From Oceanispirochaeta sp. (lineage in GTDB: Bacteria; Spirochaetota; Spirochaetia; DSM-2461), in NCBI GenBank assembly GCA_963663385.2, contig CAXXXD010000003.1, forward strand, positions 256,001 through 320,000: a DNA stretch of 64,000 nucleotides, read 5' to 3'. Of this stretch, positions 4,503 through 34,858 are shown one piece after another. The notes beneath the pieces were generated by a model that was not told where the DNA came from, searched no databases, and saw only the letters and a list, made by a program, of their open reading frames with translations. Made by a program: the position numbers and the translations under genes. Numbering within the stretch: position 1 is the first letter of the stretch; each line of letters starts with the position of its first letter.

Positions 4503-5558
4503 ATGAGTGAGCAGATCAGGTTTTCACCGCAAAAGATGGAAGCCTTTATCTTTGAAATTTATCAAAAGGCAGGTATGAGCGATGACGATGCCCATACCTG
4601 TGCGGAATGTACCGTAAAAACAAATTTGTGGGGAGTTGACTCCCATGGAGTGTTGAGGACTCCAGCCTATGTTGACCGGATCCTGAAAGGTGCTGTCAAT
4701 GCTAAAGCATCGGTTCGTTTTCTGAAGGGTGAAGACGGTCCGCTGTCCCTGATGGACGGCGATGCCGGCATGGGGTATGTGGTCGGACAGAAAGCCATGG
4801 AGACTGCCATCTCCAAGGCCAAGACGTTCGGAATCGGCATGGTTATCGTAAAAAACAGCAACCATTTCGGTGCCGCCTCCCTTTTTGCCAGACAGGCGGC
4901 GGAAGTCGGGATGCTTGGACTGGTAACTACCAATGTTATTCCCAATATCGGGATGCCCGGCAACAAAAAATCCGTTACCGGAAACAACCCGATTGCCATG
5001 GCGGCTCCCATGGGCAAAGAGTATCCCTTCTCTCTGGATATCTCCATGAGTGCTGTAGCTGGCGGGAAAATCCTTCTGGCCCAGAAAAAGAATGAGAAGA
5101 TTCCCACAACCTGGGCGATTGATAAGGAAGGAAACCCCACGGACGATCCCATTGCCGGATTTGCGGGAATTCTGCTTCCCGCGGGAATGCATAAAGGACT
5201 GGGGATGTCCCTGTTTATCGACATTCTCACTGGTGTTTTAAGCGGAGGCCCTTTTCTGCAGAACCTGAAGAGCATGTATAAAAACCCGGATGATCCCAGT
5301 GAAACATCCCACCTGTTTATGGTCATGGACCCCGGTTTTTTCCTGGAAAAGGAAGAATTCGATGTCAGGATGAAAGAGTGGGCCCGTATGATCAAGGCCA
5401 CTCCCATGGCCGAAGAAGGGGCGGAGCAGATTATCCCCGGAGAGATCGAATATAACTGCGAGCAGCAGAGAAGGAAAGAGGGACTCCCCATTCCGTCAGA
5501 ACTGGTAAAGGATCTGAATGAACTTTCAGAGAAATTGGGAATGACCGCAAAGCTCTAG
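4503..5558 (+). CDS. Ldh_2 family NAD(P)-dependent oxidoreductase (YiaK/AllD/ComC-like)
   Basis: DSHGV, NSNHFGAA, GNNPIAMAAP, LDISMS, HKGLG motifs. Confidence 0.9.
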   Translation: MSEQIRFSPQKMEAFIFEIYQKAGMSDDDAHTCAECTVKTNLWGVDSHGVLRTPAYVDRILKGAVNAKASVRFLKGEDGPLSLMDGDAGMGYVVGQKAMETAISKAKTFGIGMVIVKNSNHFGAASLFARQAAEVGMLGLVTTNVIPNIGMPGNKKSVTGNNPIAMAAPMGKEYPFSLDISMSAVAGGKILLAQKKNEKIPTTWAIDKEGNPTDDPIAGFAGILLPAGMHKGLGMSLFIDILTGVLSGGPFLQNLKSMYKNPDDPSETSHLFMVMDPGFFLEKEEFDVRMKEWARMIKATPMAEEGAEQIIPGEIEYNCEQQRRKEGLPIPSELVKDLNELSEKLGMTAKL

Positions 5559-5612
5559 GAAGCTGAAGCGATCCAGATAGTAATTTTTTTACAAATAGTG
5601 AGGTTTATAAAA

Positions 5613-6527
5613 ATGAAAAAGCAGACTAAATTCAAGTTAGACAAAAGAGACTCCATCTGGTTTCACGAGAACAGTGCGCCTGTTTGTGTCAATTATGCAA
5701 AAGAAGTATGTGACGTGGCCATTCTGCCCATCGGTGCCATTGAACAGCACGCTATTCATGCTCCCACCGGTATGGATACCTTCAATGCTATCGGTATCGC
5801 CGAAAGGGTTGCCAAAAAAACAGGCGCCATGATTCTGCCTTGTCCCATGTACGGATCACACCCCCACCACCACTGGGGAATGCCCGGTACCATTCCCCTG
5901 ACATATGAAACACACATCGGCCTGCTGATGGATATTGTTCGCGGTGCTGCTGTTGCCGGTTACAACAAGTTTATCATCATTTCCGCTCACGGACAGGTTT
6001 CTTCCATGATCGTAGCAACCCACAAACTGGGCATTGAAGGTTTCTTTACCATCTCTTCCACCTGGTATGACTTTCTAAGAGATGACAAAACCGAACTGGA
6101 AGATTATATGTGGCACGCAGACGAAGCGGAAACTTCCGTTGGTCTTTACATGTACCCCGAATGGATCAATATGGATCTGGTAGAAGACGGCGGCGGAACA
6201 GCTCTGGTTGATTCCAAATGGAAAATCGCCCCCGGTCAGGCTGCCGGTGCCGGTATGATGTATCACTTCGAAGGAACCTTCGGTCTCCCCGAAAAAGATG
6301 ACCTGGCTACGGGTGTAATCGGTAATCCCACCAAAGCTACCTACGAAAAGGGAAAAGCCTGTATCGACAAGGTTGTTGATCATTACGCGGAATTCATTGA
6401 AGAAGTAAAATCCAAATACCCCTGTGGAATCAATCCTCTGGGATTCAGAAACCCTATGGGATCCAACAACTCTCATAACATTGTGTACGATAGTGACCAC
6501 GATAGCAAAGGACAGCTGAAAAAATGA
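5613..6527 (+). CDS. Creatininase-family hydrolase, IolN (3-dehydro-scyllo-inosose hydrolase)-like
   Basis: PIGAIEQH..HAPTGMDT, YGSHPHHHWGMPGTIP, HGQ, HADEAETS metal motifs. Confidence 0.8.
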   Translation: MKKQTKFKLDKRDSIWFHENSAPVCVNYAKEVCDVAILPIGAIEQHAIHAPTGMDTFNAIGIAERVAKKTGAMILPCPMYGSHPHHHWGMPGTIPLTYETHIGLLMDIVRGAAVAGYNKFIIISAHGQVSSMIVATHKLGIEGFFTISSTWYDFLRDDKTELEDYMWHADEAETSVGLYMYPEWINMDLVEDGGGTALVDSKWKIAPGQAAGAGMMYHFEGTFGLPEKDDLATGVIGNPTKATYEKGKACIDKVVDHYAEFIEEVKSKYPCGINPLGFRNPMGSNNSHNIVYDSDHDSKGQLKK

Positions 6528-16504: not shown

Positions 16505-17932
16505 ATGATTAAATCAGAAAAACCGAGGGTTGGATTTATCACATTTGGTGACCACCGCCCTGATATGTGGGAGAAGGTCTTCTCTCATAAAACTATCCCC
16601 CTGCATACCAAAGCGCTGGAACTGATGGGGAAGATGGATATTGAACTGATTGTTGCCGAGGACTTTGTCAGAACCCGGGATCAGATTAATGAAGCCATTG
16701 ACGCCTTGAAGGGTAAGGATATTGATGTTCTTGTAGCTCATATTCCCTGCTGGACCAGTCCCAACCTGGTTGTACACGGTATTCAGAGAATGGGTATTTA
16801 TACCATCCTCCTGGGGAACCGGGATCCCGGTACTCACGGCTGTGTGGGACTGCTTGGTGCCGCCGGTGCTCTGGGACAGATTGACTTTCCCCACCGCTGT
16901 ATACGGGAAGAGTACGATGTAGACGTATACAATGAAAAAGTGCTGCCTCTTATTAAAGCAGTATCTGTTAAGGAAAAACTGAAAGGTTCCGTGATGGGGC
17001 TGTTCGGCGGCCGTTCCATCGGTATCGACACCAGTCAGTTTGACCCCATGCAGTGGAAGGCCAAATTCGGCATCGACAGCGAACACCTGGATCAGGTGGA
17101 AATTATCCGTCTGGCTAAAGAGATTCCCCGGGAAAGAATCGACAAAATGCGGACCTGGATCGAAAAGAGCGCCAAAGAGGTCCGGTACAATGATGATAAG
17201 CTGACAAAAGAAAAATTTGATTTTCAGCTCGCCTGCTACCTGGCCACCAAGGATATGGTAAAAGAGTGGGGCATGGACTATGTGTCCCTCAAATGTATGC
17301 ATGAACTGTCGAATTCCTATGTTCCCCAGTGTATGACCCAGGCATTCCTGGCCAACCACGAAGATGCGGAAGGACCGAAAACTCCCACACCCATCGCCTG
17401 TGAAGCCGATGCGGACGGAGCTCTTACACAACAGATACTGCGTATCCTTTCCGGCGGAAAACCCACTTTTTTTGCGGATGTCAGCCACATCGATAACGAA
17501 AAGAACATTATGTACTGTGTGAACTGCGGAGCCATCTGCGTCTACTATGCCGGCCGCAGTCAGAATACAGAAGAGAATCTGAAAAATATCGTTATCAATC
17601 AGTCTGTCCGTCCCGGCGGTGGAGGAATTACATACTTCAATGCTTCAACTGGTCCCATGCAGCTGGCCCGCCTCTACCGGAAGGGCGGAAAGTACAAAAT
17701 GGCCATTATCCCCTGTGATGCGGTACAGCCGACTCAGGAAATGCTGGATGAGTTTATAGAAGCCCGCGGTCCCCACCAGCTGCCGACCCTTTTTGCCAAG
17801 TGCAACCTGGATATAGAGAGGTTTATCAATGAGTATGGTTCCAATCATATTTCAGGTGTTGAAGGAATGTATCTGAACGAACTGCTGGAAGTTTGTAATG
17901 TTCTGGATATCGAAGCGGAAGTTTTTGCATAA
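16505..17932 (+). CDS. L-fucose/L-arabinose isomerase family aldose-ketose isomerase
   Basis: GGRSIGIDT, KFGID, ACEADADGALT, FADV, NHIS; shorter than canonical FucI. Confidence 0.85.
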   Translation: MIKSEKPRVGFITFGDHRPDMWEKVFSHKTIPLHTKALELMGKMDIELIVAEDFVRTRDQINEAIDALKGKDIDVLVAHIPCWTSPNLVVHGIQRMGIYTILLGNRDPGTHGCVGLLGAAGALGQIDFPHRCIREEYDVDVYNEKVLPLIKAVSVKEKLKGSVMGLFGGRSIGIDTSQFDPMQWKAKFGIDSEHLDQVEIIRLAKEIPRERIDKMRTWIEKSAKEVRYNDDKLTKEKFDFQLACYLATKDMVKEWGMDYVSLKCMHELSNSYVPQCMTQAFLANHEDAEGPKTPTPIACEADADGALTQQILRILSGGKPTFFADVSHIDNEKNIMYCVNCGAICVYYAGRSQNTEENLKNIVINQSVRPGGGGITYFNASTGPMQLARLYRKGGKYKMAIIPCDAVQPTQEMLDEFIEARGPHQLPTLFAKCNLDIERFINEYGSNHISGVEGMYLNELLEVCNVLDIEAEVFA

Positions 17933-17946: not shown

Positions 17947-18726
17947 ATGTTAGACAAGAATAAAAACCGGGTAAAAGACATATTGAAAAAAGGCGGGAAA
18001 GTTTCATCAGGCTGGCTGCAGGCCGGCAGCCCTGTAACCGCTGAAGTTATGGCGGAAGCTGGATTTGATGTACTTATGATCGATCTGGAACACGGTCCGG
18101 GGAATATAATGACAACGATCAACCAGATTATGGCTATGAAAAACGAGAAAGCGGTCCCTTTCTGCCGGGCTCCCTGGAATGATTTTGTACAGTTGAAAAA
18201 AATCCTGGATGCCGGTGTATACGGCATGCTGGTTCCCTATGTTAACACTAAAGAAGAAGTGGAAGCGGCTGTTGCGGCTGTAACCTATCCCACGGAAGGA
18301 ATCCGCGGTGTCGCGGGAAGTCCCCGGGCCGCCCACTACGGCAATAATTCCATGGACTATCTGAAATCAGCCAACGATGAGGTATTCCTGATGACAGCGG
18401 TGGAAACACCGGAAGCGGTAAAAAATATTGATGAAATTCTGTCCGTTGACAGGCTGGACGGTATCTTTATCGGCCCCATGGACCTGGCCACCAATATGGG
18501 ATTTTTCGGTAATCCCAAAGCTCCCGAAGTACAGGAAGCGATTAAGAAAGTGGAAGAGAAGGTATTTGCCTCCGGTAAAATCCTGGCTACCGTTGCCGGA
18601 ACCTGGGATGATGCCAAAGCAAAGTATGAAAGGGGTTACAGTCTGATCAACTTCTTTTCCGATACGACCACCCTTGGAGCTGTCGCCCGGGAACGGGTTA
18701 AACTGTTTAACGAATTCAACAAATAA
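17947..18726 (+). CDS. HpcH/HpaI family pyruvate aldolase (2-keto-3-deoxy acid aldolase)
   Basis: IDLEHG, R.PWND, LDAG, GIRG, VET, FIGPMDL. Confidence 0.92.
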   Translation: MLDKNKNRVKDILKKGGKVSSGWLQAGSPVTAEVMAEAGFDVLMIDLEHGPGNIMTTINQIMAMKNEKAVPFCRAPWNDFVQLKKILDAGVYGMLVPYVNTKEEVEAAVAAVTYPTEGIRGVAGSPRAAHYGNNSMDYLKSANDEVFLMTAVETPEAVKNIDEILSVDRLDGIFIGPMDLATNMGFFGNPKAPEVQEAIKKVEEKVFASGKILATVAGTWDDAKAKYERGYSLINFFSDTTTLGAVARERVKLFNEFNK

Positions 18727-19613: not shown

Positions 19614-19622
19614 GGGGCGTGT

Positions 19623-19883
19623 ATGGAAACCAAATTAACATTAAGCCTTGATAAGGAAGTAATAAACAGGGCGAAAGACTATGCCAAAATCCGGAAAACC
19701 AGTCTTTCCCATCTGGTGGAGGATTATTTCTGCCTGCTTACGGCAGAATCCCCGGTAAATATTCAGGAAGATAACAGAAAATCTCCTATAACTGATAAAC
19801 TGCTCGGTTCTGTTAAAGTTGAAGACCCTGATGCGGAAAAACTGAAGAGTGACTACCTGATGGATAAATATATCAATGCATAA
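19623..19883 (+). CDS. DUF6364-like ribbon-helix-helix antitoxin
   Basis: METKLTLSLDKEVINRAKDYAK..SLSHLVEDYF; overlaps the PIN gene. Confidence 0.8.
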   Translation: METKLTLSLDKEVINRAKDYAKIRKTSLSHLVEDYFCLLTAESPVNIQEDNRKSPITDKLLGSVKVEDPDAEKLKSDYLMDKYINA

Positions 19884-20307
19884 GGTCTTTGTTGATACTG
19901 ATGTGATTCTGGATCTGCTTCTGGAGAGAGAGCCTTTTAAAGAGGCTGCCTATGAGCTGTTTCGCAGAATCGAACTGAAGAAGATCAAAGGCTATACCTC
20001 TCCCCTGGTTATGGCCAATCTGCACTATATACTTACAAAAATTCTGGGCAAATCAAAAAGTATTCAGCTTCTCAGGAATCTGCTGCAGATCCTTTCCATT
20101 ACGAAGATTGACTCGGATACAATTTTACAGGCATTTGCCGAAGAGAAGCTTAAAGACCTGGAAGACCTGATACAGCTGTATTCTGCTCTTGACTGGGAAA
20201 TTGACATATTAACCACCAGAAATATCAAAGATTATCCTGAAAAGGATGGTATCAGGGTTGTGATGCCGGGGCAGTTGATATCCATGATTGATGCGGTTGA
20301 GTTGTAG
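19876..20307 (+). CDS. PIN-domain (VapC-like) toxin
   Basis: VFVDTDVILD, DLEDLIQ, LTTRNIKDY. Confidence 0.88.
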   Translation: MHKVFVDTDVILDLLLEREPFKEAAYELFRRIELKKIKGYTSPLVMANLHYILTKILGKSKSIQLLRNLLQILSITKIDSDTILQAFAEEKLKDLEDLIQLYSALDWEIDILTTRNIKDYPEKDGIRVVMPGQLISMIDAVEL

Positions 20308-20358: not shown

Positions 20359-22518
20359 TTACTCAAAAAACTCAATCAGATCACTCCCGGCTTCCGCCGC
20401 CCTGACCTTGTCAGAACCGGTGCCGAGAAAGGCGAATTCCACCGCCGCATCCGGTTTCAGTTCATAGGCTTTCTGATAGTATACCTCTGCTTCCTCATGT
20501 TCTCCCAGGGCATGACCCGCTTTGCTGATATTCAGATAGAGGCTGAGCCGGCTGTTATCCCTGAGCTTATCCCCCTGTGACTTCTCTATTTTTTTGAACT
20601 GGGTTAAGGCGGCTCCGTATTTCTCCTGGGTGTAGTAGAGGGATCCCAGATTCAACTGGGCCCTGGCATTGTCAGGGCGCATCCGGATCATCTCCTTTAT
20701 GGCTTTTTCGGCAATATCATAGGCCCCTATTTTGGAAGCGGCCACAGCCAGCGCGTTCCAGCTCCCCAGGCTTCCCTTACTGTAGGCTTCCTGCTGAAAG
20801 GACTGGAGAATGGTGTTGTTCAGCCAACTCAGATCATCCCGGAAGGCCGACTGGATTTCCTCTGAATCGCCGTACTGCAGGCCAAGGTCCGTTTCCCGCA
20901 AAACTATGGAACGGTAGAGGGACTGGGACTCTCCTGTCCGGTAGACTCCGCGGACTTCAGGCTGCGCCTCCCATTTGCTGAATTCGGATATGCCGATCCG
21001 CCAGGCATCGGAAAATTTCTTCAATCCTATCAGGGTTATTTCAACGGGAACCCAGAGCTCCCCGTCCATAGCCAGGCTCATGGAGCGGTCGGGGTTGATC
21101 ATGGCGTAATCCCCTGAGGGGACCCCCGTGTTGAAGGCGCAGTAGATGTGGCCGGGGACCGTTACCAGAGCCGTTTCGATCCCCACTGATTCCAGGAGGG
21201 TACAGAACAGAACCGTCAGATCGTCGCAGTCGCCGGTTTTCCGGATCAGGGTTTCCCGGGGGAGGCTGATGGAGTCCACCAGCAGGGCATCTTCCTGGGC
21301 CTGCGTAAAGGGGGACCCGGGATCCACCTGGTACATCAATCCCAGTTCTCCCAGGGCGTTGAACACCTGCATGGCATACTGCAGGCTGCCGTTAAGGTAG
21401 GGATTCACCTCCTCCTTATGGATCTGCCGGATATGGCTGGCGTAATTTCTTAACGCGCTGTCCTGGGGTGTAATAAAGGCCGCTGCCTTGCGGTCGTCGT
21501 CCCAGGTCAGGGCATTCCTGTCGTACAGATCGTAGGAGACGGACTGACGCTGTTCCACTTCCCGGCCTTTTATGGTGTAAGTTGTAATAACTTCCCCTGT
21601 AAGAGGAGTGACTCCCTGGGTGGAAAAAACTTCATTGTTAAAAGTTATATAGAGGGGAATCTCAAGATTTCCTCCCCCTTCCAGATTAAGATTCTGGGCA
21701 ACCGGACTGGGAGAGTCCATAAATCCCGGCTGCAGAAAACTGACAGAGAGATCTTCCAGGGGAGCTTTCTCCTTGTTGCTGATATTGAGTGTTCCTGCAG
21801 GATTTTTCACATAGTAGCTCTGCATGGCAGAAAAGAGGGGGGGGACGCTTATATCCTCAAAGCGGATGGCCTTGATAGCGTTCTGCGTCCGGTCCGGGTC
21901 TTTTCCGAAGCGGTAGGCTGCTGAGAATCCGACACCGAAGGTAAACCCGTCATAGTCGTCCATTATCCCCAGGGCCCGGGAGTAGTTCAGGGCGGGGCTG
22001 ACGGAAATGCTGACATTATAGGAGGGGTTCAGGGCCAGGCGACCCGTAACACGTCCCATGGCTTCCAGCTGCCCCAGATCTTCATCCAATCCGTTTTCGC
22101 TGAGCTCCGTATAATAGCTCTGGGATACTCCTCCCACAAGATCCACTCCCAGCTCGAATTCCCCGGATATCCGGTTGATATAACCCAGGCCGGCTGCGGC
22201 AAAATAGTGCTGATGGGTCCAGTCCTGATGGAACTCATCCATATCCCCGTCAAAAATGTAGCTGGTCATTCCCAGGCGCAGCATGGGCTGCAGGGTGGGG
22301 GCATTCCGGAAGGGAATGCGGATATCTCCCGACACTTCGCTGATGGTAAAATCTGAGAGGGAGCTTTTACCTATGGTCCCCAGAGTCAGGTACTGAATGC
22401 CCATGGAGAAGGGGTAGGCGTAGTGGGTGTTGTAGTTGATTTTCTCTGATTCTCCAGGGAGATTCAGGCTCAGAGTCATCAGTGCAATAGTTGTCAGGAT
22501 GTATTTCATTTTTTTCAT
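20359..22518 (-). CDS. Exported protein: putative N-terminal beta-barrel + transglutaminase-like domain + TPR repeats
   Basis: Signal peptide; alternating beta-strands ending GVGFSAAYRF; TGDCDD..VPGHIY..VPVEIT triad; C-terminal TPRs (AQLNLGSLYY, YLNISKA). Confidence 0.65.
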   Translation of the reverse strand: MKKMKYILTTIALMTLSLNLPGESEKINYNTHYAYPFSMGIQYLTLGTIGKSSLSDFTISEVSGDIRIPFRNAPTLQPMLRLGMTSYIFDGDMDEFHQDWTHQHYFAAAGLGYINRISGEFELGVDLVGGVSQSYYTELSENGLDEDLGQLEAMGRVTGRLALNPSYNVSISVSPALNYSRALGIMDDYDGFTFGVGFSAAYRFGKDPDRTQNAIKAIRFEDISVPPLFSAMQSYYVKNPAGTLNISNKEKAPLEDLSVSFLQPGFMDSPSPVAQNLNLEGGGNLEIPLYITFNNEVFSTQGVTPLTGEVITTYTIKGREVEQRQSVSYDLYDRNALTWDDDRKAAAFITPQDSALRNYASHIRQIHKEEVNPYLNGSLQYAMQVFNALGELGLMYQVDPGSPFTQAQEDALLVDSISLPRETLIRKTGDCDDLTVLFCTLLESVGIETALVTVPGHIYCAFNTGVPSGDYAMINPDRSMSLAMDGELWVPVEITLIGLKKFSDAWRIGISEFSKWEAQPEVRGVYRTGESQSLYRSIVLRETDLGLQYGDSEEIQSAFRDDLSWLNNTILQSFQQEAYSKGSLGSWNALAVAASKIGAYDIAEKAIKEMIRMRPDNARAQLNLGSLYYTQEKYGAALTQFKKIEKSQGDKLRDNSRLSLYLNISKAGHALGEHEEAEVYYQKAYELKPDAAVEFAFLGTGSDKVRAAEAGSDLIEFFE

Positions 22519-25500
22519 TATTCGTCTCCCAGGAGGGGGATGACAGCCAGTCCGGCTGTTCCGTCCGCCACATAGGCATAGCTGCCTGAAACAGCTACAT
22601 CATAACCATAGGAGGCCGTATCTCGGTAGATGGGTGTCCCGGGATTCTGAGGGTCTCGAATATCTACAATAGCGATACCGTCATTTTTTACAGAAATAAA
22701 AGCAAAATTACCCGAAATTTCTATATTGAAAGGAGGTTTGCTTAAAGGTATATAAACGGGGGATCCAAGAGATGTCGGATCGGATATGTCAACAATGGCA
22801 AATTCTGCTGTGGAAAAGGACAGATAGGCATAATTTCCGGAAACTGTTACGTTAGAGGGATGTTTGGATGGTGTATTTAAATGATCTAATAGCACGGGAT
22901 TCTCCGGATCGTATATATCGATACTGGCCATACCATCCCCATCGATAACGAAAGCATAATGATCTCCTATTGCAACATCAATCGTAGCTGCCCCGGTGTT
23001 GATGGATACAGGTACACCTGGATTCTCTGATTCTGTAAAATCGTAGATTATTAAATTGTTCGGCGCCGGGATATAAAGGTTGTTGCCAAAGACCTCATAA
23101 GAATTTTTAGATTCAGGTATTGTTATTAGTTCTATGGGGTGAGCGATATCGGAAATATTCAGGACTTTTATTCCTACTCCAGATTCATGAATAAAAGCAT
23201 AATTGGAATAAATCTTGACCATTTGTATGTTAGATGAGGTATAAAAGTAGTTTGGTGAACCTGGTTGCTTCGGGTTGGATATATCAATAGCTGCCAAACC
23301 ATCCTGGTAATCTAAAGCAATAACAGTGCTACCCAATATTTCAATATTAGTGAATTCCCCGCTGGTGGGGATATTGGTTGGCGATCCGGGATTGGTTGGA
23401 TTGGCAATATCGAATACGAACAGTCCATTGTAAGAATTTGATATAAAAGCGTATTTACCGTAAATAGCTATACCACTTAAGAGCGCAGCTGAAAATGCCA
23501 TAGTTTCTGAATATAATGGATTTGAAGGATCCGACAGATCTACGATAAAAACTTGATTAGAAGCAACAAGGTAGGCATAGCATCCAGAGAGAATCAATTT
23601 GTTTGTTGATTTAGGGGTCGCAGCATAAATGGGAACACCTGCATCTGTTGGATTGGTGATATCAATAAGGGCCAGGCCATATTTTGTGGTTAAATCGGCT
23701 TCAGTAAACTGACCTGCCAGATAGGCCGTGTTATCCTTAATTACAATGCTATTTATTATATCAAGTGATCCATGATCTTCTAACGATACAGTATCTTTCA
23801 GAATTGGGCTTCCTGGAGTAGTGGAAATATCCAGAATGTAAAAAGTTGTGTCGGATCCTAAATACAAATAATCATCAGTAGAAGCCAGGCATTTTACATA
23901 TCCATAGTGTGTTAAAAAACTTTCCGATCCCGGATTTGATTTATTTGTGATATCTATAATCCCCAAACCATCTCTATCAGCTGCAATATAAGCATAGTTT
24001 CCTGACACGGTTACACCTTTGGCGTAATCGCCCAATTCGACATAAACAGGATCCGCTGGATATTGAGGCGTAATCAATTGCATGATGGCCAGCTTTAAGT
24101 TGTTCAAGTCACCCAAAATAACAAAAGCATAATCGTCCGCTACCACACCATCATAAGTTTTCTCTCCTTCCAGTATTGTAATCGGAGAACTTATCTGTTC
24201 CGGATCCGTAATATCAAGTATATTCAACCCACCGTATGAACTCTGACAGAGATAGGCATAATTCCCGGATATGATAATATTGCTCGGGGCATGTGGTAAA
24301 TTGACAGAAGATACTTGTTTTGTTCCAAATCGTCCAGGTTTGGAAACTGCATAATTACTTGGGATCTCCGAACATTCTGCAGGAATAATACGGTAGTAGT
24401 AATCAGTGTCAAATTCTACATTGTAGTCAGTAAATTCTGTAGTTGCCAGATTCTGCCGTTTTCTCCAGGGACCGGAAGCAGAGATGCTCCGTTCTATCGT
24501 ATAATAGGTAACCTGTGACAAAGCTTGCCACTCCAGCGAAATCGACCCATACCCGGTCGCGCTTATCTGCGGTGTAAGAGTCAACGGACTCAACGGCATC
24601 TTGGAAATAGAACTTAAGTACGCATTCCCCCCGGAATCCGCTGGAATATTAGCCGTCAGGGTAAAATTGTATATTTCTCCATTATCCAGCCCGTCCCACA
24701 CATAGGGACTGGTCACATTCTCCCGGGTTACCCCGAAGTTTGTTTCGAAAAGGGTATAGGATTCCGCAAATAATACATCATCCCAGGAGATTGTTACCTG
24801 TTTATTCCCGGGTACAACGGAAAATCCGGAAATGTCCCCGCCTTCGGCCGGCTTGGTAATGGTACAGACAAGGGTTGTCTCATTTCCATTCAGGTCCAGT
24901 GCCGTTACCTCTATTGTTCTGGAACCTTCCAGCGCGGAAACATCCAGAACAGTAGAGAAGGTTCCGTTTTCTTCGCTCAGGGTCAGTTCCCCGCTGATAT
25001 CGGTTCCGGGAAGGGCATAGCTTATCTTTGTGTTCACCTCGGTAAATAATTCCGTTTCCAGTGAGTTTGTTACATACCCCGAAAGGATAACCGCTGTGGC
25101 GTATTCCGAGTAGTCCACAGGAGAAGTCAAAACAAGATTGGGGCCGTCCGTGTCTGGATCGACTATAACCGTTGCCTCCACTTCGTTATCGTTGATATCC
25201 ACCGCTGTAATCTGGATGGTTATCTGCTTATCGTATTCCGCTGTAGGAACGGAAAAGAAGAAGCTGCCGTCTGTTCCCACAGTAATGGCTGTGGAATTGC
25301 TTTCCTGGTTTTTAATAATAAAAGAGGCACTGCCAATATACTGGTCGGCGTCCTCCGCTCCACGGCTGTCTCCGTCGCTGTCCACATCAATAATCGTCCC
25401 GCTTACCGTTAGGGATGATTCAAATAGGGAACCCTGAGAAGGGGAGTTGATGGTGATAACCGGAGGGTTCAGGTCCTGCAGGGTCAGGAGCTTGTCTTTG

Positions 25501-25580
25501 TCAAAGGGGGTGGGACAGCTGATAAAGAGGCAAACGGTTATTATGGAAAGAATTAACGATCTAATGCGTCCTGGAGTCAT
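22518..25580 (-). CDS. Large lipoprotein with Ig-like, fibronectin III and LVIVD repeats
   Basis: Lipobox CLFISC after ATG 25580; P..TINSP Ig domains; PGNKQVTISW FN3; many SGNYAY..GL.IIDI.NP repeats. Confidence 0.8.
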   Translation of the reverse strand: MTPGRIRSLILSIITVCLFISCPTPFDKDKLLTLQDLNPPVITINSPSQGSLFESSLTVSGTIIDVDSDGDSRGAEDADQYIGSASFIIKNQESNSTAITVGTDGSFFFSVPTAEYDKQITIQITAVDINDNEVEATVIVDPDTDGPNLVLTSPVDYSEYATAVILSGYVTNSLETELFTEVNTKISYALPGTDISGELTLSEENGTFSTVLDVSALEGSRTIEVTALDLNGNETTLVCTITKPAEGGDISGFSVVPGNKQVTISWDDVLFAESYTLFETNFGVTRENVTSPYVWDGLDNGEIYNFTLTANIPADSGGNAYLSSISKMPLSPLTLTPQISATGYGSISLEWQALSQVTYYTIERSISASGPWRKRQNLATTEFTDYNVEFDTDYYYRIIPAECSEIPSNYAVSKPGRFGTKQVSSVNLPHAPSNIIISGNYAYLCQSSYGGLNILDITDPEQISSPITILEGEKTYDGVVADDYAFVILGDLNNLKLAIMQLITPQYPADPVYVELGDYAKGVTVSGNYAYIAADRDGLGIIDITNKSNPGSESFLTHYGYVKCLASTDDYLYLGSDTTFYILDISTTPGSPILKDTVSLEDHGSLDIINSIVIKDNTAYLAGQFTEADLTTKYGLALIDITNPTDAGVPIYAATPKSTNKLILSGCYAYLVASNQVFIVDLSDPSNPLYSETMAFSAALLSGIAIYGKYAFISNSYNGLFVFDIANPTNPGSPTNIPTSGEFTNIEILGSTVIALDYQDGLAAIDISNPKQPGSPNYFYTSSNIQMVKIYSNYAFIHESGVGIKVLNISDIAHPIELITIPESKNSYEVFGNNLYIPAPNNLIIYDFTESENPGVPVSINTGAATIDVAIGDHYAFVIDGDGMASIDIYDPENPVLLDHLNTPSKHPSNVTVSGNYAYLSFSTAEFAIVDISDPTSLGSPVYIPLSKPPFNIEISGNFAFISVKNDGIAIVDIRDPQNPGTPIYRDTASYGYDVAVSGSYAYVADGTAGLAVIPLLGDE

Positions 25581-25938
25581 ACCGCCGTCTCCTGTCTTAA
25601 TAGTGCGGACAGGTAAATCCGGAAGGAGTTCATAAATGTACCTCAAAAACTTATTGTAATTTAAATAATATATCACGGTTATTCTGCTATTTCCAGAAAG
25701 ATATAGGTATGTGGAAGCAGCATAATTGGGAGTCTCAATACCGGCAGGTCTTGTCGTGCTGCCGTTTTCCAATAGGCACTAGTCGGTTCAAGGAACTACG
25801 ATTTTGTTCAGGGGAGAGATGATAATACAGGGAAAACTTGACAATTCGCTCATTCCCCTTAATTATGAATGTATATATTGTCTGATTATCGGATTTAAGT
25901 AGAGATATATTCATACAAGCAATACAGGAGTGAAGCAT

Positions 25939-26958
25939 ATGGCAAAGGTAAAAGTAGGAGTAGCCGGTTATGGCGTAATCGGTCAGAGGTTGGCGGACGG
26001 TGTTGCACTGCAGGGGGATATGGAGCTGGTTGGAGTAGCCGATGTGGCTCCCACTCTTCCCGTAAGAGCCCTTTATGAAAAAGGCATGCCCTATAAGCTG
26101 TTTACAGCAGCACCGGAAAAGAAGAATCTGCTGACAGATCTGAACATTCCTGTTTCCGGTACTCTGGAAGAGATGGTGCAGGAGTGTGATCTGATTCTGG
26201 ACGCCACCAGCGCCGGTATCGGAGCTGAAAATAAGAAACTCTATAAAAAATACAATACCAAAGCTGTTTTTCAGGGCGGTGAAACGAACGATGTGGCCGA
26301 TGTTTTCTTTCATGGGTATGCCAACTACGAAAAAGGTGTCGGGGCGGATTACCTTAAGCTGACCAGCTGTAATACAACCGGTCTGATCCGGGCCATGGAC
26401 TGTATTGACAGAGCTGTGGGCGTGGTGAAAACAGCCATTACCATTATCCGTCGTGTGGCCGATCCCGGGGATTATCACAGAGGATTGACCAATGCCCTGC
26501 AGGTGGATAAGGCGCCCAGCCATCAGGCTCTGGACCTGATGACCATTATGCCCCATGTAAATGCAACAGGTATTCTTGTGCATACTCCAGTCACTCACGG
26601 ACATATTATTACCTCTGTGGTTTCCCCCGGGGCTAAAATCAGCAAAAAAGAGCTGCTGGACCTGTTTCATGCCCATCCCAGAATCCGGGTGGTAAGACTG
26701 GAAGACGGTTTCCTCGGAAACGCTTCCCTGTTTAAATATGCCAGAGACCTGGGTAATCCCAGAGGCGATATGTATGAAATCGCCGTTTGGGAAGAGTCCA
26801 TTGTAGAGTCCGGTGACGATGTCATGTTCGCCATCAATATCCCACAGGAAGCTGTTGTTATTCCCGAAAATATCGATGCTGTCAGAGCTGCCACCGGAAT
26901 GCAGACCACCCGGGAAGAAGGTACGGCCGCAACCAATAAATATCTGAATATGAAATAA
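25939..26958 (+). CDS. Type II (archaeal-type) glyceraldehyde-3-phosphate dehydrogenase homolog
   Basis: GYGVIGQRLAD, FQGGE, SCNTTG (catalytic Cys), IRRVADP, QEAVVIPENIDAVRA; AGGAG RBS. Confidence 0.88.
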   Translation: MAKVKVGVAGYGVIGQRLADGVALQGDMELVGVADVAPTLPVRALYEKGMPYKLFTAAPEKKNLLTDLNIPVSGTLEEMVQECDLILDATSAGIGAENKKLYKKYNTKAVFQGGETNDVADVFFHGYANYEKGVGADYLKLTSCNTTGLIRAMDCIDRAVGVVKTAITIIRRVADPGDYHRGLTNALQVDKAPSHQALDLMTIMPHVNATGILVHTPVTHGHIITSVVSPGAKISKKELLDLFHAHPRIRVVRLEDGFLGNASLFKYARDLGNPRGDMYEIAVWEESIVESGDDVMFAINIPQEAVVIPENIDAVRAATGMQTTREEGTAATNKYLNMK

Positions 26959-26994
26959 GCAAAGGGAGTTTTATGAATCTGAAGAGGAGTACAT

Positions 26995-28248
26995 ATGAGC
27001 AGGGGCAAACCCGGTTTTAAACCGATGGAAGATTTTGATGTAAAAGGGAAAAGGGTTCTTTTAAGGGTGGATATCAACTCTCCCTTAGATCCGGTTTCAA
27101 AAAAAATTGTAAACGAAAACAGGATAAACAAGAGTCTTCCTGCAGTGGAATGGCTGCTGGAACAGGGAGCCAGACTGGCCATTATCGCCCATCAGGGGGA
27201 TACCCTGGATTATCAGAATCTGATCCCTCTGGCGGAGCATGCCGGGAAACTGTCAGAAAAGCTGAACCGGACTGTATCCTATATTGACGATGTCTGCGGA
27301 CCCGCCGCTCAGGGTGCCGTGAAAAACCTTAAAGAGGGAGAAGCGGTTCTTCTGGGAAACCTGCGCTACCTCTGCGAAGAGATCTCCACCTTTGAGGATG
27401 CGGTAAAACTGACTGCTCCCGAAATGGTCAACACCTGGCTGGTCAGAAGCCTGGCCCCCCTGTTTGACCTCTATATTAACGATGCCTTTGCAGCGGCACA
27501 CAGGAACTGTCCCAGTATGGTGGCGTTTCAGGAACTTCTCCCCAGTGCTGCCGGTCCCCTGTTATTCAATGAAGTATCTGCTTTGACCAAAGTCCTGCAG
27601 GCGCCGGAACACCCTGCCGTCTTCCTCCTGGGAGGAGCCAAAATCTCCGATGCCTTTGGTATGATGGAGCAGGTTCTTGCCAGCGGTACAGCCGATAAAA
27701 TTCTCACCTCAGGTGTAACCGGGCAGGTATTCCGGATTGCCTCCGGTCTGGATCTGGGGCCTTCAATGGCGAAATTCCTGAAGGACCGTTCCCTGGATGT
27801 ATTTATTGAAGAGGCCGCCGGATACCTGAAAACCTACCCTGAAAAGATTCTGATGCCCGTCGATGCGGCTTATAAAAAGGAGGGCCGGCGCATGGAAGTT
27901 TCCATTGACAACCTTCCCGGGGATGAAATGTATATGGATATCGGCAAAAAAACCATCGCCATTTATCTGGAAGAGATTCAAAACGCGGGGACTGTTTTCG
28001 TCAACGGGCCCTCCGGTGTATTCGAAGAGGAGATTTTTGAAGACGGGACACGGGACCTCTGGAGGGGGATTGCCGAAGCGCCCGGTTATACCGTAATCGG
28101 CGGAGGGGACAGCGTCAGTGCGGCAGGCCGTTTTACGGATCCTGCCAGAATGAACTATATCTGCACAGCCGGAGGGGCTATGGTCAGGTTCCTGTCCGGC
28201 AGGAAACTGCCCCTGATTGAAGCGATGGAAAAGGCCGGCCGTAAATGA
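26995..28248 (+). CDS. Phosphoglycerate kinase homolog, archaeal-like
   Basis: RVDINSP, AHQG, NLRY, NDAFAAAHR, GGAKISD, NGP.GVFE, GGGDS, TAGGA. Confidence 0.9.
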   Translation: MSRGKPGFKPMEDFDVKGKRVLLRVDINSPLDPVSKKIVNENRINKSLPAVEWLLEQGARLAIIAHQGDTLDYQNLIPLAEHAGKLSEKLNRTVSYIDDVCGPAAQGAVKNLKEGEAVLLGNLRYLCEEISTFEDAVKLTAPEMVNTWLVRSLAPLFDLYINDAFAAAHRNCPSMVAFQELLPSAAGPLLFNEVSALTKVLQAPEHPAVFLLGGAKISDAFGMMEQVLASGTADKILTSGVTGQVFRIASGLDLGPSMAKFLKDRSLDVFIEEAAGYLKTYPEKILMPVDAAYKKEGRRMEVSIDNLPGDEMYMDIGKKTIAIYLEEIQNAGTVFVNGPSGVFEEEIFEDGTRDLWRGIAEAPGYTVIGGGDSVSAAGRFTDPARMNYICTAGGAMVRFLSGRKLPLIEAMEKAGRK

Positions 28249-28317
28249 CACCGAATCTTCCCTGTCAAACCTTCCTGATGCTTGTATTTTTCCCCGAATC
28301 ATAGAACTATTAATCCT

Positions 28318-28911
28318 ATGGCAAAAAGCAGAAAAAAGAAGACATCCCGGGATAAACAGGCGGAACTCTCAAAAAAACGAATTTATGAAACAGGTCTGGA
28401 CCTGTTTTCCCGGCAGGGGATCGATCAGACCAGCATCGCCGAAATCTGCCGGGAGGCGAATTGTTCGGTAGGCGCTTTCTATCATCATTTTTCTTCCAAA
28501 GAGAGTATATTGGAAGAAACGTTCCGTCTGGCCGATGACGATTTCAGCGTATGGAATATCGCGGAGGATCTGAATCTGAAAGGACGGGAAGTGGTTTTAA
28601 AATATATGCAGGTATACGCGGAGCTTGTTGAGAATACCGGTCTGGAATTCACCAAGCGGTTTTATACATGGAAGAATAAAATCTTTATTAAAAAAGGCCG
28701 TCCCATGCAGACCAGGCTGATTGATCTGATTCAGGCGGAGCTGGAAGCGGGGAATCTTGCATTGACTGTAACACCGGAAGAAGCCTGTGAATGGCTTTTC
28801 GTCTGTGCCCGGGGGGTAGTTTTCCACTGGTGCCTTTATGAGGGGGATTTTGATTTGAAAGAGAAAATGGTGGAATCCGCAGACCGGGCGTTGCGGGGGA
28901 TCGAACAATAA
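28318..28911 (+). CDS. TetR/AcrR family regulator
   Basis: LFSRQGIDQTSIAEICREANCSVGAFYHHFSSKE. Confidence 0.92.
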   Translation: MAKSRKKKTSRDKQAELSKKRIYETGLDLFSRQGIDQTSIAEICREANCSVGAFYHHFSSKESILEETFRLADDDFSVWNIAEDLNLKGREVVLKYMQVYAELVENTGLEFTKRFYTWKNKIFIKKGRPMQTRLIDLIQAELEAGNLALTVTPEEACEWLFVCARGVVFHWCLYEGDFDLKEKMVESADRALRGIEQ

Positions 28912-28942
28912 AAAGGCTGTCCGGAAAACCGGACAGCCTTTT
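28911..28942. terminator. Bidirectional terminator between convergent genes
   Basis: AAAAGGCTGTCCGG-AAAA-CCGGACAGCCTTTT perfect hairpin. Confidence 0.85.
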
Positions 28943-28962: not shown

Positions 28963-30738
28963 TTACTCAGCTGCTGCATTTTCTCCGGCAATTTTACCGA
29001 ATACATTGATATCGGGAAGTGCATTTCCCCCAAGGCGGTTGGTACCGTGGATCCCGCCGGTAGTTTCTCCGGCTGCGTACAGACCGGGAATAACGTTTCC
29101 GTCTTTATCCAGGGCCTGGGCTTTTTCATTGATTCTGATACCGCCCATCGTGTGGTGTACCGTAGGCATTCTTGCTCCGGCGAAGTAGGGAGGTGTATCG
29201 ATTTTGTGCTGAAACAGGGTCCTGCCGAAAGCGTCGGGTCCTCCGTTTTCTACGGCAGTGTTGAATTCGTCTACAGCTGCCTTCAGGTTGGCGGGATCAA
29301 CGTTGATCTGGGCTGCCAGGTCTTCCAGGGTATCCGCCATAAACGCGCGATTCTGATCAACCAGTTCCTTAATGGACTCGTTAAAGTTGTTTTTCGTATC
29401 CATCGTCGGATAGTTGTGAGAATCCAGAACAATCCACATATAGGAATCTTCCTGTTCGAAAAGAGCTTTGGTCATAACATCGCGTCTTTCCCCTTCGTCA
29501 ACAAACCGGTTGCCGTCCTTGTTGACGAATATTCTGTTTTCTACACCCTGCTCAATATTTCCGGAGAGGCTTCCCGTGTCGGGGTCACCCATGGGCAGGA
29601 GCTGGATATACTCCATCCCGACAAGATCCGCGCCAATCTTTTCAGCCATTACAATACCGTCACCGGTAGCTCCCGGATGGTTGGTGGATTTGATGCTTTC
29701 ATCAAGGGTTCCCCATAGTTTGTCGTATTTCTGACGCATCTCAACATTGTTTCCAAATCCACCGGCAGCAATAATTACAGCCTTATGGCCCTGAGCAACA
29801 ACTGTTCCTTTTAAACCTTCGGCTTTTACAACACTGGCTCTTCCTTCTTCCAGGTAAATCTCAGTTGCCTTTGTATCTGTCAGAACAGTTATATCATCAT
29901 GAGAATTTATATAGTTCATATAGGTTTCGATAAAACCGGTTCCCAGAGGTTTCACAGGTTTGTGAGCACGGGGCCAGAGTCCTCCCAGAACGGTAAAGAT
30001 ATGATCTTTGAACTCCATTCCCATACCTTCCAGCCATTTGAGGGTGGGAAGGCCGTTTTCAACCAGGGTTCGGATCAGAACCGGATTTCCCATCTGATCA
30101 CCGCCGTTATAGGTCTGTTCATAATGCTTGTCAACAGAGTCTTCTACACCGAATTTTGCCTGGAATTCCGGGTCCGCACAGTTATAGGCCGCTCCGGAAA
30201 TTATGGTATTACCACCCACCTGGGGCATTTTTTCCAGTACGATGACAGAAGCGCCGTTCTGGTTGGCGGATACAGCGGCTGCCAGACCGGCTCCGCCGGC
30301 ACCTATCACAACAATATCCGCATTAAAGACTTCAGTTGCCGCCGAAACAGCATCAGCCTCTGTTTTTCCCTCCGAGAGGGCCGCTATGTCGGCTCCTGCC
30401 GCTGTCAGGGCTTCTGTAACAGCTCCGATAATAGCCCGGCTGGAGTAGGTTGCACCGGAAACCGTATCAACATTCAGAGTCTGACCTTCGATAATGGCTG
30501 CAGGGATTCTTTCGAATGCCACATCAGATACACCGGGTGTTTCATGGTTTTCAATGATTTTGATCTCTTTAATCTCTTTTTTGTCTACAGTAACTTCGAG
30601 AACAACATCCTCTCCATGGATACCGGGCGCTCCTCCCGTGTAGGTTCCAGGTTCGAAGACGGCTTTGCTGCCGCATCCGGAAATGAATACAGACAGTGCT
30701 GCAATCATGAGCATGGGTTTGAGTTTCTTCATGATCAT
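28963..30738 (-). CDS. Lipoprotein flavocytochrome c-type reductase (FMN_bind + FAD_binding_2; FccA/UrdA family)
   Basis: Lipobox FISGC; flavinylation motif DTVSGATYSS; IGAGGAG, GGNT, TGDG, HHTMGG, NRLGGNA. Confidence 0.9.
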   Translation of the reverse strand: MIMKKLKPMLMIAALSVFISGCGSKAVFEPGTYTGGAPGIHGEDVVLEVTVDKKEIKEIKIIENHETPGVSDVAFERIPAAIIEGQTLNVDTVSGATYSSRAIIGAVTEALTAAGADIAALSEGKTEADAVSAATEVFNADIVVIGAGGAGLAAAVSANQNGASVIVLEKMPQVGGNTIISGAAYNCADPEFQAKFGVEDSVDKHYEQTYNGGDQMGNPVLIRTLVENGLPTLKWLEGMGMEFKDHIFTVLGGLWPRAHKPVKPLGTGFIETYMNYINSHDDITVLTDTKATEIYLEEGRASVVKAEGLKGTVVAQGHKAVIIAAGGFGNNVEMRQKYDKLWGTLDESIKSTNHPGATGDGIVMAEKIGADLVGMEYIQLLPMGDPDTGSLSGNIEQGVENRIFVNKDGNRFVDEGERRDVMTKALFEQEDSYMWIVLDSHNYPTMDTKNNFNESIKELVDQNRAFMADTLEDLAAQINVDPANLKAAVDEFNTAVENGGPDAFGRTLFQHKIDTPPYFAGARMPTVHHTMGGIRINEKAQALDKDGNVIPGLYAAGETTGGIHGTNRLGGNALPDINVFGKIAGENAAAE

Positions 30739-33460: not shown

Positions 33461-34015
33461 GTTATTACAGGAAGGCCCGAACACTTGAAAACAATGGATT
33501 TTATTATGGAGTATGACGGAACTGTTTTTTGAAAAGAATACGACAATTCCTGAAAGCGATAATGAATATATAATAAAACTGACATTTTTCAGATAATAAA
33601 AAAACAGCCAGTAAAATTCGGAAGTGTTTTATGTCCTGACTGGATATCAATCGGTTTGTAAGGGGTAATTTATATCAGTAAACAAAGTTTACTTTTTGTT
33701 GTTTTAAGCTTTTATGTATAGTCATTTTTTTTATTGACAAAGGTATTTGAGCTTGTAAGTATTACTACGATAAAGCCCATTTATAAAACCGATGGTTTTT
33801 CGTTACTCTTGAAGTATTTTTCTATTTGGTTTGCGGAACTTTCAGCTTAATCTCATTTGATAATTTAGCCGGAGGATAATATTCCTCGGATTTCTGGTTC
33901 TTAGAAATGTTATGTTTCAGTATTTCTTAGTGTTTATTTATTCATTGACTAAAATCAAATGATCATTATTATGTTTTAACTAGGACATAATCTTTCTGAA
34001 AGACTAGGAGACATC

Positions 34016-34825: not shown

Positions 34826-34858
34826 ACTATTATATTCTGTATCAAAGATTAAAATGCT

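Follow-up and report, generated by a model that had tools for sequence, protein, structure and literature searches.

A type II GAPDH and an archaeal-like PGK in an Oceanispirochaeta genome as a candidate ATP-yielding module for D-malate semialdehyde oxidation

Why should a spirochaete maintain, among catabolic genes, a second glyceraldehyde-3-phosphate dehydrogenase (GAPDH) and a second phosphoglycerate kinase (PGK), both resembling archaeal enzymes and encoded side by side? The question is raised by a 64,000-nucleotide stretch of an Oceanispirochaeta sp. genome (assembly GCA_963663385.2, contig CAXXXD010000003.1, positions 256,001 to 320,000), referred to here as the window, in which an earlier note made from the sequence alone had described a type II GAPDH and an archaeal-like PGK as a two-gene unit and had proposed that they oxidise an unphosphorylated hydroxyaldehyde with gain of ATP. 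The coordinates and family matches obtained here agree with that description, and all of the motifs listed in the note (SCNTTG and PSHQAL in the GAPDH; RVDINSP, NLRY, AHR, GGAK, GGGD and AHQGD in the PGK) are present. The analysis described below suggests that the pair is probably an accessory, non-glycolytic module coupling oxidation of a non-phosphorylated alpha-hydroxyaldehyde to ATP formation via an acyl phosphate. We further consider it reasonably probable that the two proteins are a phosphorylating D-malate-semialdehyde dehydrogenase and a D-malyl-phosphate kinase, together yielding D-malate and ATP.

The GAPDH-like protein exceeds the cut-offs of two NCBIfam type II GAPDH models (NF003251, 404 bits against 185; TIGR01546, 288 bits against 232.9), and in Pfam it matches only Gp_dh_C and DapB_N and not the Aldedh family. 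Its closest solved relatives are all archaeal (M. fervidus 1cf2, P. horikoshii 2czc, M. jannaschii 2yyy and S. solfataricus 1b7g; E values 1.9e-72 to 8.7e-62). The PGK-like protein matches Pfam PGK (PF00162) with 354 bits across model positions 1-379 of 379 and its nearest solved relative is archaeal P. horikoshii 2cun (1.3e-79); no NCBIfam PGK equivalog was reached, the only match being to NF010569 (bifunctional PGK/TIM) with 295 bits against a cut-off of 883. The earlier note had left it to be checked whether canonical genes exist elsewhere, and in this 5.3 Mb genome, which is 98% complete, a canonical gap (Gp_dh_C, 233 bits) is directly followed by pgk (535 bits) at G000:C3:976824-978512, with a third Gp_dh_C gene on C2, so that the window pair is an extra copy. 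The window-type PGK was found in two of ten genomes of the same genus (73% and 69% identity), in none of 14 genomes from other genera of the family and in one of 16 genomes of other families, there at only 43% identity. Extra-copy status and this distribution across 40 relatives together indicate that the pair is accessory and patchy in occurrence. Both proteins have bacterial homologues in the thousands (6263 scored hits for PGK and 4570 for GAPDH), and those taxonomically named among the top 120 belong to Spirochaetia, Clostridia, Bacteroidota, Latescibacteria and Spartobacteria. Absence of tpi, aldehyde dehydrogenase and FucO-type reductase genes, also remarked upon in the note, is borne out to the extent that no member of the tpi, Aldedh or iron-containing alcohol dehydrogenase (Fe-ADH) families was detected among the 51 window open reading frames (ORFs) scanned.

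To place the GAPDH active site, residue numbers were taken from the alignment with 1cf2, in which SCNT occupies positions 139-142, the RR pair 167-168, the HH pair 193-194 and the catalytic His 219. The SCNTTG and TH(G)H motifs of the window protein align with Cys140 and His219 of 1cf2 and both residues are kept; in the clade of 121 sequences including the query, SCNTTG is present in 120 and PVTHGH in all. The 120 closest homologues (best 120 of 4570 scored hits) are 79-92% identical. The segment IIRRVADP aligns with VRRGADP of 1cf2, and its two arginines, equivalent to Arg167 and Arg168, are retained in 120 of the 121 clade sequences. The available text of a review of aldehyde dehydrogenases (PMC12041015) assigns phosphate binding of glyceraldehyde 3-phosphate (G3P) to Arg167 and Arg168, and the other, sulfate-occupied site to Ser139, Asn141, Arg167, His193 and His194. 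The earlier note had taken PSHQAL in place of archaeal SHHG(P) as remodelling of a G3P contact. A substitution is indeed present (PSHQALD in the window, compared with PSHHGPD in 1cf2, 2czc and 2yyy and PSHHAKD in 1b7g), but the Gly to Ala change also occurs in the S. solfataricus enzyme, so that neither it nor the Pro change is diagnostic, and contact of HG with G3P is not what the accessible part of that review describes, His193 and His194 being assigned there to the sulfate site. Only replacement of the second His (His194) by Gln sets the window GAPDH apart from all four solved archaeal enzymes, His193 being kept, and HQ is found at 193-194 in 121 of 121 clade sequences. By alignment, His194 to Gln sits in the inorganic-phosphate-type site and the predicted substrate-anion site is intact.

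In the PGK-like protein, AHQGD aligns with tHQGK of 2cun, SHLGK of 4dg5 and SHLGR of 1vpe, which bears out the reading that a basic residue of the phosphate site has been replaced by Asp, here Asp69. From its position in the motif and the mammalian sequence, we take the basic residue of H-x-G-R/K to be Arg65. According to the available text of a PGK review (PMC7729029), Arg65, Arg122 and Arg170 hydrogen-bond the 3-phosphate of 3-phosphoglycerate (3-PG), His62 contacts the bridging oxygen and Asp23 and Asn25 the 2-hydroxyl. Of this arginine triad the equivalents of Arg122 and Arg170 (R124 and R170) are kept, and the Arg65-type position is Asp69. HQGD is found in 117 of the 120 closest PGK homologues, which are 58-85% identical (best 120 of 6263 scored hits), and Asp69 together with the Arg122 and Arg170 equivalents is present in all 58 sampled members of the subfamily. 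The note had allowed that such a substitution might be common among glycolytic orthologues; among the 120 nearest full-length PGK representatives, however, the Arg65-type residue is Arg in 104 and Lys in two (106 of 120 basic), Asp in four, Ser in three, Gln in two and Gly, Ala or Asn in one each, the non-basic ones including the nearest outgroups of the subfamily.

Comparison of the 58 subfamily sequences with the 106 representatives carrying Arg or Lys identified further subfamily-specific features, namely a rebuilt loop after HQG (DTLDY.NL in place of RPG..DF), a six-residue insertion after NLRY at 133-138 and Ala177 in place of Gly. Residues D26, N28, R43 and H66, equivalent to Asp23, Asn25, Arg38 and His62, are invariant in all 58, and the catalytic K216 (equivalent to Lys215) is Lys in 55 and Arg in three. 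The subfamily is sharply separate: in a library clustered at 50% identity its one full-length representative scored 585 bits and the next full-length sequence outside the clade 360, with fragments of 261-393 aa at 50-65% identity scoring 309-374. Loss of one arginine with retention of the other two would fit a shorter, singly charged anion in place of the phosphate. A number of PGK-like proteins lying near the subfamily (P0245, P0248, P0249, P0250, P0256, P0264, P0332, P0337, P0347 and P0386) have Asp, Ser, Gln, Gly, Ala or Asn as the Arg65-type residue, and PGK may have radiated into several non-3-PG kinases.

These residues bear directly on whether the pair is an ordinary second glycolytic or gluconeogenic set of archaeal origin, acting on G3P and 3-PG and drawn into catabolic operons to handle triose phosphate consumed or set free in transketolase or aldolase reactions. 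In keeping with such a role, the GAPDH passes both type II equivalog cut-offs with its catalytic residues and Arg167/Arg168 intact, the PGK retains equivalents of Asp23, Asn25, Arg38, His62, Arg122, Arg170 and Lys215, and transketolase, a frequent neighbour of the pair (see below), requires an acceptor such as G3P. Against it stand the invariant Asp of the subfamily at a position that is Arg or Lys in most of the nearest other PGKs, failure of the PGK to reach any NCBIfam PGK equivalog, the presence of gap-pgk elsewhere in the genome with no tpi near the window pair, and linkage of the pair to malate-specific enzymes. In addition, the P. thermosuccinogenes type II GAPDH CDQ83_07070 is reported to show no activity on G3P with either NAD+ or NADP+ in a study in which two type I GAPDHs were active on this substrate, and its authors state that class II GAPDHs in bacteria are without functional evidence (Koendjbiharie et al. 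2019; PMC6543838, as far as its text was available). The primers given there for CDQ83_07070 encode VKVGV... and ...MGKWK*, termini typical of the Firmicute members of the clade, and the same species also carries a 67%-identical PGK homologue; from these two observations it is probable that CDQ83_07070 belongs to the window GAPDH clade. A glycolytic function is on this evidence quite unlikely.

The genes that accompany the pair were compared in 61 loci from species-representative genomes using longest-ORF calling, BLAST clustering and annotation of recurrent clusters. This crude ORF calling missed PGK in six and GAPDH in eight of the loci, and the neighbour counts are therefore lower bounds. 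The type II GAPDH gene was adjoined to PGK in at least 53 loci. A split transketolase or E1-like thiamine diphosphate enzyme was present in at least 35, a LarA-family protein in 31, malic enzyme in 15 and a member of the tartrate dehydrogenase family in three, with one or more of the last three in 36 of the 61. Any of iolG, E, D or B was found in 27 loci and IolD in 20, a FucI-like isomerase or HpcH aldolase in six, and among the annotated clusters no PfkB, aldolase or aldehyde dehydrogenase (ALDH) cluster recurred. A LarA representative has malate racemase Mar2 as its best solved-structure match (6d6z, 3e-65) and LarAH6 malate racemase as its best NCBIfam model (401 bits). Members of the tartrate dehydrogenase family score above the TIGR02089 cut-off (496 and 472 bits against 470), and this family includes decarboxylating D-malate dehydrogenases (DmlA) in the available text of PMC11353897. 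The linked iolG, iolE and iolD genes all score above equivalog cut-offs. In three loci (L029, L030 and L038; two Desulfospira and one Lachnospiraceae) a pyruvate dehydrogenase (PDH)-E1-alpha-like protein, paired with a transketolase-C-like subunit, replaces the transketolase N-terminal subunit beside GAPDH-PGK.

D-malate would need either a racemase and an L-malic enzyme or a D-malate dehydrogenase, and these are exactly the recurrent partner genes. Retention of Arg167/Arg168 in the GAPDH and of Arg122/Arg170 in the PGK, taken with the malate enzymes encoded alongside, points to an anionic, carboxylate-bearing aldehyde as substrate. The proposal of the earlier note is supported in kind, as an ATP-yielding oxidation of a hydroxyaldehyde, and is probably wrong as to the neutral substrates that it named. 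In its version L- or D-lactaldehyde, glycolaldehyde or glyceraldehyde, released by rhamnose catabolism or an HpcH aldolase, would be converted to lactate, glycolate or glycerate with gain of ATP. HpcH-family aldolases release lactaldehyde or glycolaldehyde from deoxy sugar acids, an HpcH aldolase is encoded directly upstream of the pair in five spirochaete loci, the window carries rhaA, rhaD-like and rhaB genes in a cluster, neither an aldehyde dehydrogenase nor a FucO could be recognised in the 51 ORFs scanned, and replacement of Arg by Asp could suit an uncharged tail. Set against this, the GAPDH strictly conserves both of its phosphate-binding arginines and the PGK two of three, the genes that keep company with the pair are those for malate enzymes, transketolase and the iol functions, and no rha or fuc genes, for which a survey of homologue neighbourhoods had been suggested, recur near the pair in the 61 loci. 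The rhamnose cluster of the window, at 49-53 kb, has no conserved tie to the pair in these loci, and a neutral aldehyde as the substrate is very unlikely.

We read the two genes as a copy of the GAPDH-PGK couple turned to a new use. In the reaction that we favour, the type II GAPDH-like enzyme would oxidise (R)-3-hydroxy-4-oxobutanoate (D-malate semialdehyde, OHC-CHOH-CH2-COO-), an analogue of G3P with -CH2-COO- in place of -CH2-O-PO3, using NAD(P)+ and phosphate and passing through a Cys thiohemiacetal and a thioester to D-malyl phosphate. The PGK-like enzyme, as a D-malyl-phosphate:ADP phosphotransferase, would then use this acyl phosphate to phosphorylate ADP, with D-malate and ATP as the products. 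In most genomes IolG, IolE, IolD and IolB would turn myo-inositol into 5-dehydro-2-deoxy-D-gluconate, a ketose close in size to xylulose 5-phosphate that bears a carboxylate at the position of the phosphate, and the split transketolase would take a C2 ketol unit off this compound to leave D-malate semialdehyde. Conversion of D-malate to pyruvate could be accomplished by a LarA-type malate racemase and malic enzyme or, alternatively, in one step by a tartrate/D-malate dehydrogenase. In this spirochaete the pair would function as a unit with a TetR-family regulator, its likely feeders (Ldh_2, IolN-like, FucI-like and HpcH proteins) being scattered over the preceding 21 kb. Gene identity, extra-copy status, conserved substitutions and gene neighbourhoods are observed directly; the substrate and the direction of the reaction are inferred, as is where this genome would obtain the aldehyde. 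A wider proposal, to which we give about even credence, is that natural substrate-level phosphorylation from D-malyl phosphate is the common ATP-yielding last stage of an undescribed way of fermenting myo-inositol, dependent on transketolase and free of kinases, and of other cyclitol and sugar-acid routes, such as that of the spirochaetes with HpcH and IolN-like proteins, and that transfer has carried this module through Bacillota, Spirochaetota, Lentisphaerota, Thermodesulfobacteriota and others.

A link between the different genetic contexts is provided by one Spirochaetia chromosome that carries four recent copies of the pair, each on a different catabolic cluster: one with transketolase and iol genes (L012), one with transketolase and a PfkB kinase (L010), one with a TRAP/ABC transporter and a lactonase (L008) and one with the HpcH gene set (L019). 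The four GAPDHs are 95.6-98.3% identical and the PGKs 86-94.5%, and in a quick maximum-likelihood tree (IQ-TREE) the four copies form one clade despite their differing contexts. The occurrence of near-identical copies in different contexts implies that one enzyme pair serves several feeder routes, and their coexistence in a single genome argues for HpcH-linked copies, that of the window included, acting on the same aldehyde as those linked to transketolase and iol genes.

The HpcH context itself is conserved among spirochaetes. In five spirochaete loci (L011, L015, L016, L019 and L042) the genes for a FucI-like isomerase and an HpcH aldolase immediately precede GAPDH-PGK, Ldh_2 and an IolN-like hydrolase are also present in four of these (all except L015) and a URO-D-like gene in three (L011, L016 and L042), whilst an Asp/Glu-racemase-family gene and lacI lie downstream in all five. 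The fullest gene order is Ldh_2, IolN-like hydrolase, FucI-like isomerase, URO-D-like, HpcH aldolase, GAPDH, PGK, Asp/Glu-racemase-family protein, LacI. Clear orthologues of four members of this set are encoded in the window (Table 1), including a 71%-identical aldolase, in agreement with the connection to an HpcH aldolase drawn in the earlier note; in the window this gene lies approximately 7 kb upstream of the pair. The set is split there into three pieces. The intervening genes encode an SDR with a GntR regulator and a TRAP transporter, LacI with a TAL-like protein and a lactonase, and a class II aldolase with a toxin-antitoxin pair; in addition there are two large minus-strand genes. The latter, encoding a TPR protein (719 aa) and an LVIVD-repeat protein (1084 aa), span 20359-25772 upstream of the pair, and the toxin-antitoxin pair (DUF6364/PIN) lies at 19587-20307. 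Both occupy the place where, in the related spirochaetes, the HpcH aldolase abuts GAPDH-PGK, and for this reason they look like an insertion that split the operon. A URO-D-like gene of the window (7617-8660) was considered as the orthologue of that in the spirochaete operons and ruled out at 21% identity. URO-D/MtaA-CmuA-like proteins recur in spirochaete sugar and cyclitol clusters (window 7617-8660 and 47109-48164; L010:1279-2451, L016:4911-6065 and L006:122-1486), where they may act as decarboxylases or as demethylases on O-methylated sugars or inositols.

These feeder genes raise the possibility that, at least in the HpcH-linked spirochaetes, the same mechanism operates on another anionic analogue of G3P, such as 3-sulfolactaldehyde (giving sulfolactate and ATP), tartronate semialdehyde (if supplied by cleavage of the GarL type) or 2,3-dihydroxy-4-oxobutanoate (with tartrate as the product), or that the pair is promiscuous for the anionic tail. 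In the window and in related loci, Ldh_2 proteins score best against the L-sulfolactate dehydrogenase model (269 and 261 bits), the only NCBIfam match of the isomerase is sulfoquinovose isomerase SftI (66 bits), and there are also a TAL/FSA-like gene, an SDR, an SMP-30 lactonase and an HpcH aldolase with GarL as its best model. TauE-family permease genes follow the pair in three loci, tartrate dehydrogenase family genes occur in three, and cleavage of a C6 precursor to pyruvate and a C3 aldehyde fits better than that of a C7 compound. The sulfo-related scores are, however, far below their cut-offs (269 against 500 and 66 against 700), the partners met most often (LarA, malic enzyme and iolGEDB) suit malate but neither sulfolactate nor tartronate, and the near-identical copies in HpcH and transketolase/iol contexts of one genome argue for one common substrate. 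A different anionic substrate is thus rather unlikely. A reading as sulfoglycolysis was rejected: no sulfoquinovosidase was found near the sister locus L043, where the GH31 gene is an alpha-xylosidase (1253 bits), and every sulfo-like match in the window lies far below its cut-off.

The remainder of the genome was examined for inositol genes and for the malate partners. An inositol cluster lies approximately 125 kb downstream of the window (G000:C3:~439800-449400; L087:3837-13361) and comprises, in order, an ABC transporter, iolG, lacI, iolB-like, iolD (942 bits), iolE and iolG, with neither iolC nor iolA. No iolC above cut-off was found in the genome (best 118 bits against 300) and likewise no methylmalonate/malonate-semialdehyde dehydrogenase (IolA; best 82 against 448). 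The lower half of the canonical inositol pathway therefore seems to be missing, iolC and iolA being below cut-off and iolJ not having been searched for, and the presence of iolGEDB without iolC and iolA is what the proposed alternative lower pathway predicts. The one close relative of a partner enzyme is a malic enzyme homologue, 55% identical to the partner type. A second cluster (G000:C3:~500700-507500; L088:4702-11542) encodes a PdxA-like dehydrogenase, a split transketolase, an Fe-ADH, a LarA homologue closer to lactate racemase than to malate racemase, and an IolO-like 5-keto-L-gluconate epimerase (265 bits; cut-off 300).

Several observations weigh against D-malate semialdehyde as the substrate. 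Within the DNA fetched, 25 of the 61 loci show no LarA, malic enzyme or tartrate dehydrogenase; the LarA representative does not reach its cut-off of 500 bits, and IolB-like proteins fall below theirs (92-103 against 205). No transketolase, LarA or malic enzyme gene lies beside the pair in the window, and the homologues elsewhere in the genome are mostly distant from the partner types, LarA at only approximately 30% identity, split transketolases at 36-39% and an Iso_dh match at 41%. At the level of the active sites, an Asp in the anion pocket of the PGK is not an obvious solution to carboxylate binding, and the sole consistent active-site change in the GAPDH lies in the inorganic-phosphate-type site, so that the GAPDH sequence by itself shows no altered specificity. 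Assignment of malate semialdehyde as the substrate is by inference. The negative G3P assay of CDQ83_07070, carried out with E. coli extract as far as the source could be consulted, could reflect an inactive protein and is weak evidence, and membership of this protein in the clade rests on the primer-encoded termini and the PGK homologue of the species. The principal gap is that no chemically complete route to a C4 aldehyde could be derived from the Ldh_2, IolN-like, FucI-like and HpcH genes: an HpcH aldolase releasing pyruvate and a C4 aldehyde needs a C7 substrate, and none could be named. Feeder routes considered were ring cleavage of quinate or shikimate, hydroxypyruvate as the aldolase donor, isomerisation of 4-hydroxy-3-oxobutanoate and a decarboxylase role for the Asp/Glu-racemase-family neighbour.

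Within the window, the GAPDH-like ORF extends from 25930 to 26958, and the likely ATG start given in Table 1 lies 8 nt after AGGAG; the PGK-like gene is separated from the end of this ORF by 36 nt and begins 5 nt past a Shine-Dalgarno-like GAGGAG. A sigma-70-like promoter match upstream of the pair is weak, the scan of the region having returned three sites compared with 4.4 expected from shuffles, and neither promoter nor terminator sites were more numerous than in shuffles. The TetR-family gene is on the same strand as the pair, begins 34-70 nt after the PGK stop and is separated from it by no terminator-like site found in the scan, and from this arrangement it is probably co-transcribed with the pair. 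The hairpin beyond it is a likely two-way terminator between the TetR gene and a convergent flavoprotein gene, which occupies 28963-30738 on the minus strand and encodes an FMN_bind domain and a flavocytochrome-c-type FAD protein (fumarate- or urocanate-reductase-like). Just downstream, at 31734-37289, are two insertion sequences, one with a DDE_Tnp_1_6/DUF772 transposase and one an IS66 set (TnpB-like orf2 and transposase), in a stretch of low GC content (0.355-0.395 at 32-36 kb).

Table 1. Positions within the window of the GAPDH-PGK pair, associated signals and orthologues of the spirochaete gene set
Feature	Position	Strand	Details
Type II (archaeal-type) GAPDH paralogue	25939..26958	+	339 aa
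Archaeal-like PGK paralogue	26995..28248	+	417 aa
Sigma-70-like promoter match, TTGACA-17-AATTAT	25838..25866	+	10/12 match; ~70 nt upstream of GAPDH-like gene
TetR-family regulator	28282..28911	+	likely ATG 28319
GC-rich palindromic hairpin	28911..28942	.	14 bp; A/T runs on both sides
Ldh_2-family 2-hydroxyacid dehydrogenase	4503..5558	+	67% identical to L019 orthologue; best model L-sulfolactate dehydrogenase, 269 bits (cut-off 500)
Creatininase-family hydrolase, IolN-like (diketo-inositol ring hydrolase)	5598..6527	+	81% identical to L016 orthologue; IolN 157 bits (cut-off 245)
L-fucose-isomerase-like (FucI-like) sugar isomerase	16505..17932	+	syntenic partner in other spirochaetes; distant SftI (sulfoquinovose isomerase) match, 66 bits (cut-off 700)
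HpcH/GarL-type pyruvate aldolase	17947..18726	+	71% identical to pair-abutting L016 gene; GarL 221 bits (cut-off 393)

A search of the literature, in which subscription journals were not covered, returned neither an inositol route that depends on transketolase nor a malyl-phosphate pair occurring in nature. The papers found on malate or malic semialdehyde and malyl phosphate all concern carnitine or synthetic pathways, and those on LarA (PMC7583248 and PMC11770544) mention malic enzyme as context, with no mention of transketolase, inositol or PGK in the parts of their text that were available. The pair is a new functional variant of two well-known enzymes, for which no prior description was found in the searchable literature. 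If the proposed function is correct, it would extend the small number of known substrate-level phosphorylations by a new energy-conserving reaction, provide a first function for the 'archaeal' type II GAPDHs of bacteria, and explain degradation of inositol by many anaerobes without iolC, iolJ and iolA by a route that spends no ATP and gains one. Thousands of proteins named type II GAPDH or phosphoglycerate kinase (4570 and 6263 scored hits, respectively) may be misnamed, and metabolic models would count such proteins as glycolytic. Natural malyl-phosphate enzymes would also be of interest for synthetic dihydroxybutyrate pathways.

The window GAPDH shares with the archaeal type II enzymes (1cf2, 2czc, 2yyy and 1b7g) its length, the Cys of SCNTTG, His219 and Arg167/Arg168; it differs in being bacterial and an extra copy, in replacement of His194 by Gln and in the location of its clade in catabolic operons beside malate enzymes. 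The PGK is similarly alike to P. horikoshii 2cun in its full-length PGK family match, nucleotide-side motifs and most 3-PG ligands, and is distinguished from it by Asp69, the remodelled loop, the six-residue insertion and Ala177.

Acyl-phosphate chemistry on malate is already in use in a synthetic route to dihydroxybutyrate, which reportedly activates the other carboxyl of L-malate and so gives the regioisomeric semialdehyde. This 2,4-dihydroxybutyrate pathway proceeds via malate kinase, malyl phosphate and a phosphorylating malate semialdehyde dehydrogenase, and indicates that such chemistry is workable (PMC5481828 and PMC12104201, from the text available). In contrast to the pair described here, its enzymes are engineered versions of aspartate kinase and aspartate-semialdehyde dehydrogenase, it runs in the reductive direction and its authors call the route non-natural. 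A natural counterpart for the intermediates is the L-carnitine pathway of A. baumannii, in which malic semialdehyde is converted to D-malate and on to pyruvate by a decarboxylating D-malate dehydrogenase (Piskol et al. 2024; PMC11353897, as accessible). The proposed substrate, product and onward step to pyruvate are the same, and in three loci the gene pair is followed by a member of the tartrate/D-malate dehydrogenase family. However, the malic semialdehyde dehydrogenase of A. baumannii is a non-phosphorylating ALDH-superfamily enzyme (Cys290/Glu256) that conserves no ATP, and the pathway is aerobic and starts from carnitine; the window GAPDH has no ALDH fold match and resembles that enzyme only in the proposed reaction. 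As described in the text available, the pathway is therefore a precedent for the intermediates and not for ATP conservation. Canonical myo-inositol catabolism (IolG, E, D, B, C, J and A) shares iolG, iolE and iolD, all scoring above equivalog cut-offs, and an IolB-like gene with both the linked operons and this genome; in this genome IolC and IolA were not found, whilst IolJ was not searched for. In the linked operons transketolase and the GAPDH-PGK pair take the place of a PfkB, aldolase or ALDH cluster, an exchange that would save one ATP and gain one.

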